Virus record (IMG/VR): IMGVR_UViG_2698536552_000012
Length of the DNA stretch: 6,339 bases
From: a virus
Lineage: Duplodnaviria; Heunggongvirae; Uroviricota; Caudoviricetes
Direction: 5' to 3' (one strand)
Both the position numbers and the translations under genes were made by a program. Shown here in pieces: positions 6,111-6,339 of the stretch (position 1 is the stretch's first letter; each line of letters begins with the position of its first letter). A model generated the notes under the pieces. It was given only the letters and a program-made list of their open reading frames with translations. It made no database searches and was not told where the DNA came from.

Positions 6111-6229
6111 AACATGTCAGTGTGGTACATGGATATCGATACCATCGCCAATTATAAACTGGGCGGTGCACAGCAACATGATAGCGTACGCCTCGATCCG
6201 TGGGTGTTTATGTTCTCAGCAGGATATCG
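6111..6229 (+). pseudogene. ompW: 3-prime fragment of outer membrane protein W gene (last ~40 codons), cut off at both ends
   Basis: Translation NMSVWYMDIDTIANYKLGGAQQHDSVRLDPWVFMFSAGYR matches the C-terminus of E. coli OmpW (...VNMSVWYMDIDTTANYKLGGAQQHDSVRLDPWVFMFSAGYRF) as recalled from memory. An in-frame TAA (6108-6110) lies immediately upstream, so the rest of the gene is absent. The final Phe codon and stop are displaced by the IS1 end. Confidence 0.6.
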
Positions 6230-6339
6230 GGTAATGACTCCAACTTATTGATAGTGTTTTATGTTCAGATAATGCCCGATGACTTTGTCATGCAGCTCCA
6301 CCGATTTTGAGAACGACAGCGACTTCCGTCCCAGCCGTG
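6230..6339 (-). mobile_element. IS1 insertion sequence, terminal ~110 bp (inverted repeat plus 3-prime end of insB), continuing beyond the window
   Basis: ggtaatgactccaacttattgatagtgttttatgttcagataatgcccgatgactttgtcatgcagctccaccgattttgagaacgacagcgacttccgtcccagccgtg is the reverse complement of the IS1 right end as I recall it. The insB stop (TAA on the minus strand) is at 6245-6247, and the insB C-terminus ...[16 protein letters not shown] is encoded on the minus strand. Confidence 0.85.

Follow-up and report, generated by a model that had tools for sequence, protein, structure and literature searches.

At its right-hand end the 6,339-nucleotide stretch of DNA analysed here (the window) carries the tail of an ompW reading frame that runs directly into an IS1 element, and this arrangement raises the question of whether IS1 simply inserted into the last codons of a gene or whether the junction records some other event. 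A reading made from the letters alone (the sequence-only reading) had favoured the former, taking the locus for decayed Shigella DNA in which IS1 had entered an ompW remnant close to its stop codon, with an 8-9 bp target duplication to be looked for at the other end of the element, and it regarded the insertion as the limit of what could be said about the locus. We considered both the left junction, which lies within the window, and the right junction, which lies beyond it in complete genomes, by alignment to intact ompW, to E. coli loci and to S. sonnei chromosomes. The features concerned are the following.

5097-5926, minus strand: Rha-family and Ash-family genes, the last of the prophage arm beside the remnant (Pfam Phage_pRha and Phage_ASH)
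6108-6110, plus strand: in-frame TAA where the prophage DNA meets the ompW remnant (read from the sequence)
6111-6146, plus strand: putative attachment-site core (crossover region) of an ompW-integrating prophage (alignment of the two EC488 copies)
6111-6229, plus strand: native ompW 3' end, codons 172-211 (Pfam match and alignments to intact ompW)
6114-6251, plus strand: chimeric 45-codon ORF, 39 codons from ompW and 6 from IS1
6230-6339: first 110 bp of an IS1 of the IS1A type, continuing past the end of the window, with its terminal inverted repeat at about 6230-6252
6245-6339, minus strand: 3' end of insB, the last 30-31 codons, with the stop codon at 6245-6247 (Pfam DDE_Tnp_IS1)

When aligned to native ompW, the remnant stops at 6229, after the CG of the Arg211 codon, and the last base of that codon, Phe212 and the stop codon are all absent; over 6111-6229 it is identical to uninterrupted E. 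coli ompW at 117 of 119 positions. Native ompW reads GGATATCG-TTTTTAA at this point and the window reads GGATATCG-GGTAATGACTCC, with GGATATCG ending at 6229 and GGTAATGACTCCAAC following it, and IS1 begins at position 6230, the base that completes the 'cgg' codon of the sequence-only reading. In the ORF listing the plus-strand frame at 6114-6251 translates as MSVWYMDIDTIANYKLGGAQQHDSVRLDPWVFMFSAGYR followed by VMTPTY and a stop, and the first 39 residues of this product correspond to positions 156-194 of the 195 in Pfam OmpW (E = 1.6e-12). Position 6145 of the remnant is T, against C in every E. coli copy examined, which changes ACC to ATC and Thr to Ile in the dead frame, a substitution that fits the drift of a non-functional fragment.

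Because the in-frame TAA lies directly upstream, the ompW remnant is not part of a longer reading frame. This stop, together with the absence of the ompW promoter and of the 5' part of the gene, makes expression of the chimeric ORF doubtful, and most likely it is not expressed. The exact 45-residue chimeric product is nevertheless on record on 18 contigs, where gene callers label it 'OmpW'.

The sequence to the right of the junction is the InsB-proximal end of IS1A. Positions 6230-6339 are identical at 110 of 110 positions to annotated IS1A copies in E. coli AH04 and VG888-46E9, show 4 differences from the more distant IS1 of GPEC60, and encode on their minus strand the last 30 InsB residues, which match positions 102-131 of the 131 in Pfam DDE_Tnp_IS1 (E = 4.5e-13); transcription of the transposase runs toward the ompW remnant. 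A full copy of the element is found in the S. sonnei locus that is 100% identical to the window (L004, 10117-10884), where it is intact at 768 bp and differs from the AH04 IS1A at 2 positions. This copy has imperfect terminal repeats (GGTAATGAC.../GGTGATGCT..., with 18 of 23 terminal positions matching), a 91-residue InsA (Pfam Zn_ribbon_InsA and HTH_Tnp_IS1), a 167-residue InsB' (ORF 10132-10635; DDE_Tnp_IS1, 5.9e-78), and a GTTTTTT (A6C) frameshift motif within the insA/insB' overlap. In its length, its imperfect repeats, its insA and insB' frames and its A6C motif it is thus like the IS1A-type elements of E. coli and Shigella, and it differs from simple IS1 insertions in having no direct target duplication of 8-9 bp, a difference that bears on the history of the copy and not on its identity as IS1.

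Up to this point the sequence-only reading stands. Its assignment of 6230-6339 to IS1 is borne out by the IS1A match and the InsB C-terminus, its junction at about 6230 is exact to the base, the final Phe codon and stop are indeed lost, and the DNA is from Shigella as it had proposed, the window being 100% identical to S. sonnei 2015C-3566 (CP022457.1, given under this strain name in two papers) and to CP022459.1, N runs and the segment 2743-3917 aside. Continuation of the ompW frame through IS1, which that reading had named as evidence that would speak against it, is seen only trivially, as six codons followed by TGA at 6249-6251.

The origin of the ompW remnant is indicated by E. coli EC488. 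The 783 bases to the left of IS1 (5447-6229) are 99.5% identical to this strain, in which the same fragment, annotated as an incomplete OmpW gene, has prophage genes on one side, in a gene arrangement identical to that of the window and annotated as Rha and Ash, and yciE-yciF-yciG-trpA on the other. At the opposite end of the lambdoid prophage, about 49 kb off, a full-length ompW adjoins the integrase and excisionase genes. Alignment of the two EC488 copies showed that the 3' end of the integrase-side ompW is divergent and phage-borne and that the yciE-side fragment is the native chromosomal 3' end, and alignments to EC488 and AH04 showed that the remnant in the window matches the chromosomal and not the phage-borne version. 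Homology to ompW begins abruptly at 6111, the DNA upstream being that of the Rha/Ash prophage arm. The two EC488 copies are near-identical only over about 35 bp, AACATGTCAGT(G/C)TGGTACATGGATATCGATACCAC (AACATGTCAGTNTGGTACATGGATATCGATACCAC), and are divergent afterwards; the attachment core probably lies at 6111-6146 of the window, a position read across from these copies.

The arrangement is that of the PPompW prophages of STEC, in which about 120 bp of the ompW 3' end are duplicated at the prophage ends, with native ompW sequence next to the Rha/Ash or effector end and, at the integrase, the reconstituted gene, as seen in EC488. In the deposited PPompW phage records a 121-bp 'duplication due to insertion' is annotated at the position of the remnant. 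The window differs from these in that its prophage arm is only 87.6% identical to the phage records over 31% of the query, and in that the Shigella prophage is degraded, with an ipaH remnant. In PMC3603311, which cites Creuzburg et al. 2011 and Bobay et al. 2013, ompW (yciD) appears as a hotspot of prophage integration.

The alignments establish a prophage origin for the remnant, which is evidently the promoterless native 3' end of ompW, displaced by a lambdoid prophage of the PPompW type that integrated into the gene. IS1 therefore neither created the ompW piece nor inactivated it, the fragment having been dead and presumably redundant before the element arrived, and no working gene was damaged by the insertion sequence.

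The window ends within IS1, and complete S. sonnei genomes show the sequence beyond, so the element is not the limit it had been taken for. Its far end reads ...GCAGCATCACC joined to GGTAAGCGAAACGG... (GCAGCATCACC joined to GGTAAGCGAAACGGTAAAAAGATAAATATTAAATG...), after which come the trpA terminator and trpA; on the E. coli map this end joins the yciG-trpA spacer, 103 bp from the trpA stop codon. Mapped on the EC488 locus (L002), the two flanks of IS1 fall at 4231 and 5902, in the same orientation and collinear, and the 1,670 bp of L002 4232-5901 are absent relative to E. coli. Lost with this interval are yciE, yciF and yciG, 287 bp of spacer and, from ompW, the terminator hairpin together with the final base of Arg211, Phe212 and the stop codon. 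The resulting ompW'-IS1-trpA structure is identical in three complete chromosomes (CP022457.1, CP022459.1 and CP151301.1).

A target duplication of 8-9 bp was sought at both IS1 flanks in the S. sonnei locus L004 and none was found, the left flank being AGGATATCG and the right GGTAAGCGA. As a control, the same script recovered 8-9 bp duplications at 4 of 4 nearby IS1 copies, namely AGATGTTG at the IS1 in yciE of AH04, AGCGAAACG and GAAAAATG at the spacer copies of VG888-46E9 and GPEC60, respectively, and CAAAAACG at the IS1 downstream of the remnant in TUM1881. An IS kept in one copy, with no duplication at its ends and with collinear flanks once separated by 1.67 kb, points to an IS-bounded deletion, and the combination of one retained IS, flanks that are ancestrally non-adjacent but collinear, and a missing target duplication is what is expected of an adjacent deletion, a term defined in PMC9330008. 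On the evidence of both junctions, the IS1 of the window evidently marks an IS1-associated deletion and not a simple insertion. A literature search for a yciEFG deletion described in Shigella returned nothing relevant.

Past the window, a hairpin rich in G and C and bearing a T run (GCCGCCAG...CTGGCGGC) has been kept downstream of trpA, between this gene and IS1 (L004 10885-10990), and we take it to be the trp operon terminator. Within the spacer, IS1 replaces any further downstream termination signals.

With regard to how the deletion arose, we infer an adjacent deletion by intramolecular transposition from an IS1 in the spacer, a route to which we give slightly better than an even chance. 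An ompW-integrating lambdoid prophage would have left the promoterless ompW 3' fragment, an IS1 would then have inserted into the yciG-trpA spacer, and intramolecular transposition would have brought the InsB-proximal end of this copy to the ompW tail, deleting the DNA between. The expected outcome, with IS1 kept and no target duplication, would be the classical IS1 'adjacent deletion'. IS1-promoted deletions that start at the IS end are well known, their first description, in the gal region, being attributed to Reif and Saedler 1975, a work listed among the references of PMC8860574. The present deletion is like these in that it begins exactly at the IS terminus, the IS is kept, there is no duplication and the flanks are collinear; it differs in that the mechanism is here read from the sequence, and recombination between two IS1 copies gives the same product.

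A spacer IS1 is favoured as the starting copy because IS1 has repeatedly targeted the yciG-trpA spacer in E. coli. Of 5,426 E. coli genomes, 99 carry this IS1 end, likewise oriented, at a distance of no more than about 570 bp from the trpA-proximal flank, and the spacer IS1 of VG888-46E9 lies only 4 bp from the Shigella junction. With synthetic junctions we looked for the corresponding intermediates, a spacer IS1 with the duplication GGTAAGCGA and an ompW-tail IS1 with the duplication AGGATATCG, and in the same 5,426 genomes found no primary IS1 insertion with a target duplication at either site. The search gave only near misses (VG888-46E9, with the 4-bp offset; PSJ-07, at a distance of about 23 bp; and GPEC1258, in which IS1 lies deeper in ompW), and the same final structure would result had IS1 first entered at the ompW end and a deletion then extended rightward from it. 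An exact-pattern scan for the ompW'/IS1 junction in the GTDB species-representative genomes, among which Shigella is apparently not separately represented, gave no match.

The observed structure, with one IS1, no matching duplications and collinear flanks, would be produced just as exactly if the ompW tail and the yciG-trpA spacer had each independently received an IS1, the two in direct orientation, and these copies had then recombined homologously, excising yciEFG and leaving one hybrid IS1. IS1 has struck both regions on separate occasions in E. coli, TUM1881 having a copy 22 bp from the ompW site and VG888-46E9 one 4 bp from the spacer site, and S. sonnei carries very many IS1 copies, a number that makes double hits plausible. 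On the other hand, two insertions within 1.7 kb and a recombination would be called for, as opposed to one insertion and one transposition for the adjacent deletion, and neither of the two single insertions was among those found in the 5,426 E. coli genomes. Recombination between two copies therefore seems to us somewhat short of an even chance, and our preference for the adjacent deletion over it is a weak one.

The other explanations fare far worse. The simple insertion proposed by the sequence-only reading, into the last ompW codons with an 8-9 bp duplication and with the locus continuing beyond, is compatible with the left junction alone, but three complete genomes refute it at the right junction, where the far end lies in the yciG-trpA spacer rather than in ...TTTTTAATTCC..., no duplication is present and a stretch of 1,670 bp with yciE, yciF and yciG in it is gone; its probability is practically nil. 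Nor is there appreciable likelihood that the lineage never had yciEFG and that IS1 merely inserted between an ompW and a trpA that already abutted one another. Such an allele is common and natural in E. coli, with a divergent ompW 3' end directly beside trpA and no yciE, yciF or yciG in 682 of 5,426 genomes, and the same prophage type integrates in those genomes too; however, their ompW 3' end carries a 15-nt insertion and their ompW-trpA spacer is a different one, whereas the S. sonnei flanks are a K-12-type ompW tail and K-12-type sequence upstream of yciG, and these flank sequences refute the proposal, which would in addition leave the missing target duplication to be accounted for. That the ompW'-IS1-trpA join is an assembly artefact from collapsed IS1 repeats is very improbable: IS1 is highly repeated and the short-read contigs (L006 and L008-L013) do break exactly at the junction, but three independently assembled complete chromosomes share the identical join, and the flanks are 1.67 kb apart in the same orientation on the ancestral map, as a real local deletion predicts.

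From the ompW-trpA allele it can be seen that the species is polymorphic for yciEFG and can dispense with these genes. We had also considered as an IS-free version of the deletion a set of loci in which trpA lies 375 bp from Ash without IS1 (L018-L020, about 3560-4010), and rejected it, as alignment identified the intervening sequence as the divergent ompW tail abutting trpA. A close counterpart of the Shigella arrangement is found in E. coli TUM1881, where the prophage junction and the ompW remnant are those of the Shigella locus and an IS1 of like orientation comes next; it differs in being an independent event 22 bp further downstream, with an 8-bp duplication (CAAAAACG), yciEFG kept and another IS1 variant. 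Independent IS1 hits recur in this region (L001 3232-4030; L014, L015 and L003), near the remnant, in yciE and, several times, in the spacer, each with its own duplication of 8-9 bp.

The locus in the window is an ordinary, publicly sequenced case of a known process, and no new biology is implied. It is a small and cleanly resolved example of two layers of mobile-element scarring, a prophage integration followed by an IS1-mediated loss, of the kind typical of Shigella genome reduction, and it illustrates that a missing target duplication is a simple sign of an IS that marks a deletion. It also calls for caution in annotation, since the 45-codon 'OmpW family' ORF joins a dead ompW tail to IS1 codons and should not be taken for an IS-disrupted ompW. 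In S. sonnei the deletion takes three stress-associated genes beside the trp operon; yciE, yciF and yciG are RpoS-dependent stress genes. The insAB frames of this IS1 are directed toward the prophage arm and share their strand with ash and rha. That the loss of yciE-yciF-yciG was selected, pathoadaptive and fixed in S. sonnei rather than neutral, or that read-out from insAB drives ash and rha, is put forward here purely as an idea, and in our estimation there is only a slim chance that one or the other is right.

Elsewhere the window contains five runs of N of 161-251 bases (1905-2155, 2743-2968, 3677-3917, 4479-4639 and 5196-5446), and the Rha, methyltransferase and ipaH-like ORFs cross such runs, so that their lengths in the window are unreliable. 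With that limit on its length, the ipaH-like remnant at 2693-3529 (minus strand) has 278 codons, with an LRR_TTSS N-terminal domain and leucine-rich repeats, and appears to be without the C-terminal E3-ligase part. The segment 2743-3917, which includes this remnant, is present in L006, L008 and L009, and in CP022457.1 and CP022459.1 240 bp replace its 1,175 bp; the difference is either polymorphism between strains or a deletion mediated by repeats.

Tail-fibre assembly genes (Caudo_TAP) face each other at 350-913 (plus strand) and 942-1475 (minus strand), a convergent pair, and at 2430-2636 (plus strand) the N-terminal 68 residues of a serine recombinase (Resolvase domain) survive as a fragment; the gene pair and the recombinase fragment together look like a wrecked invertible tail-fibre switch of the Gin/Pin type. 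In the prophage lysis region of CP022459.1 (L005 3605-4761) there is a transposase gene of the IS3 family that is absent at that place in CP022457.1, which points to further IS polymorphism between S. sonnei strains.
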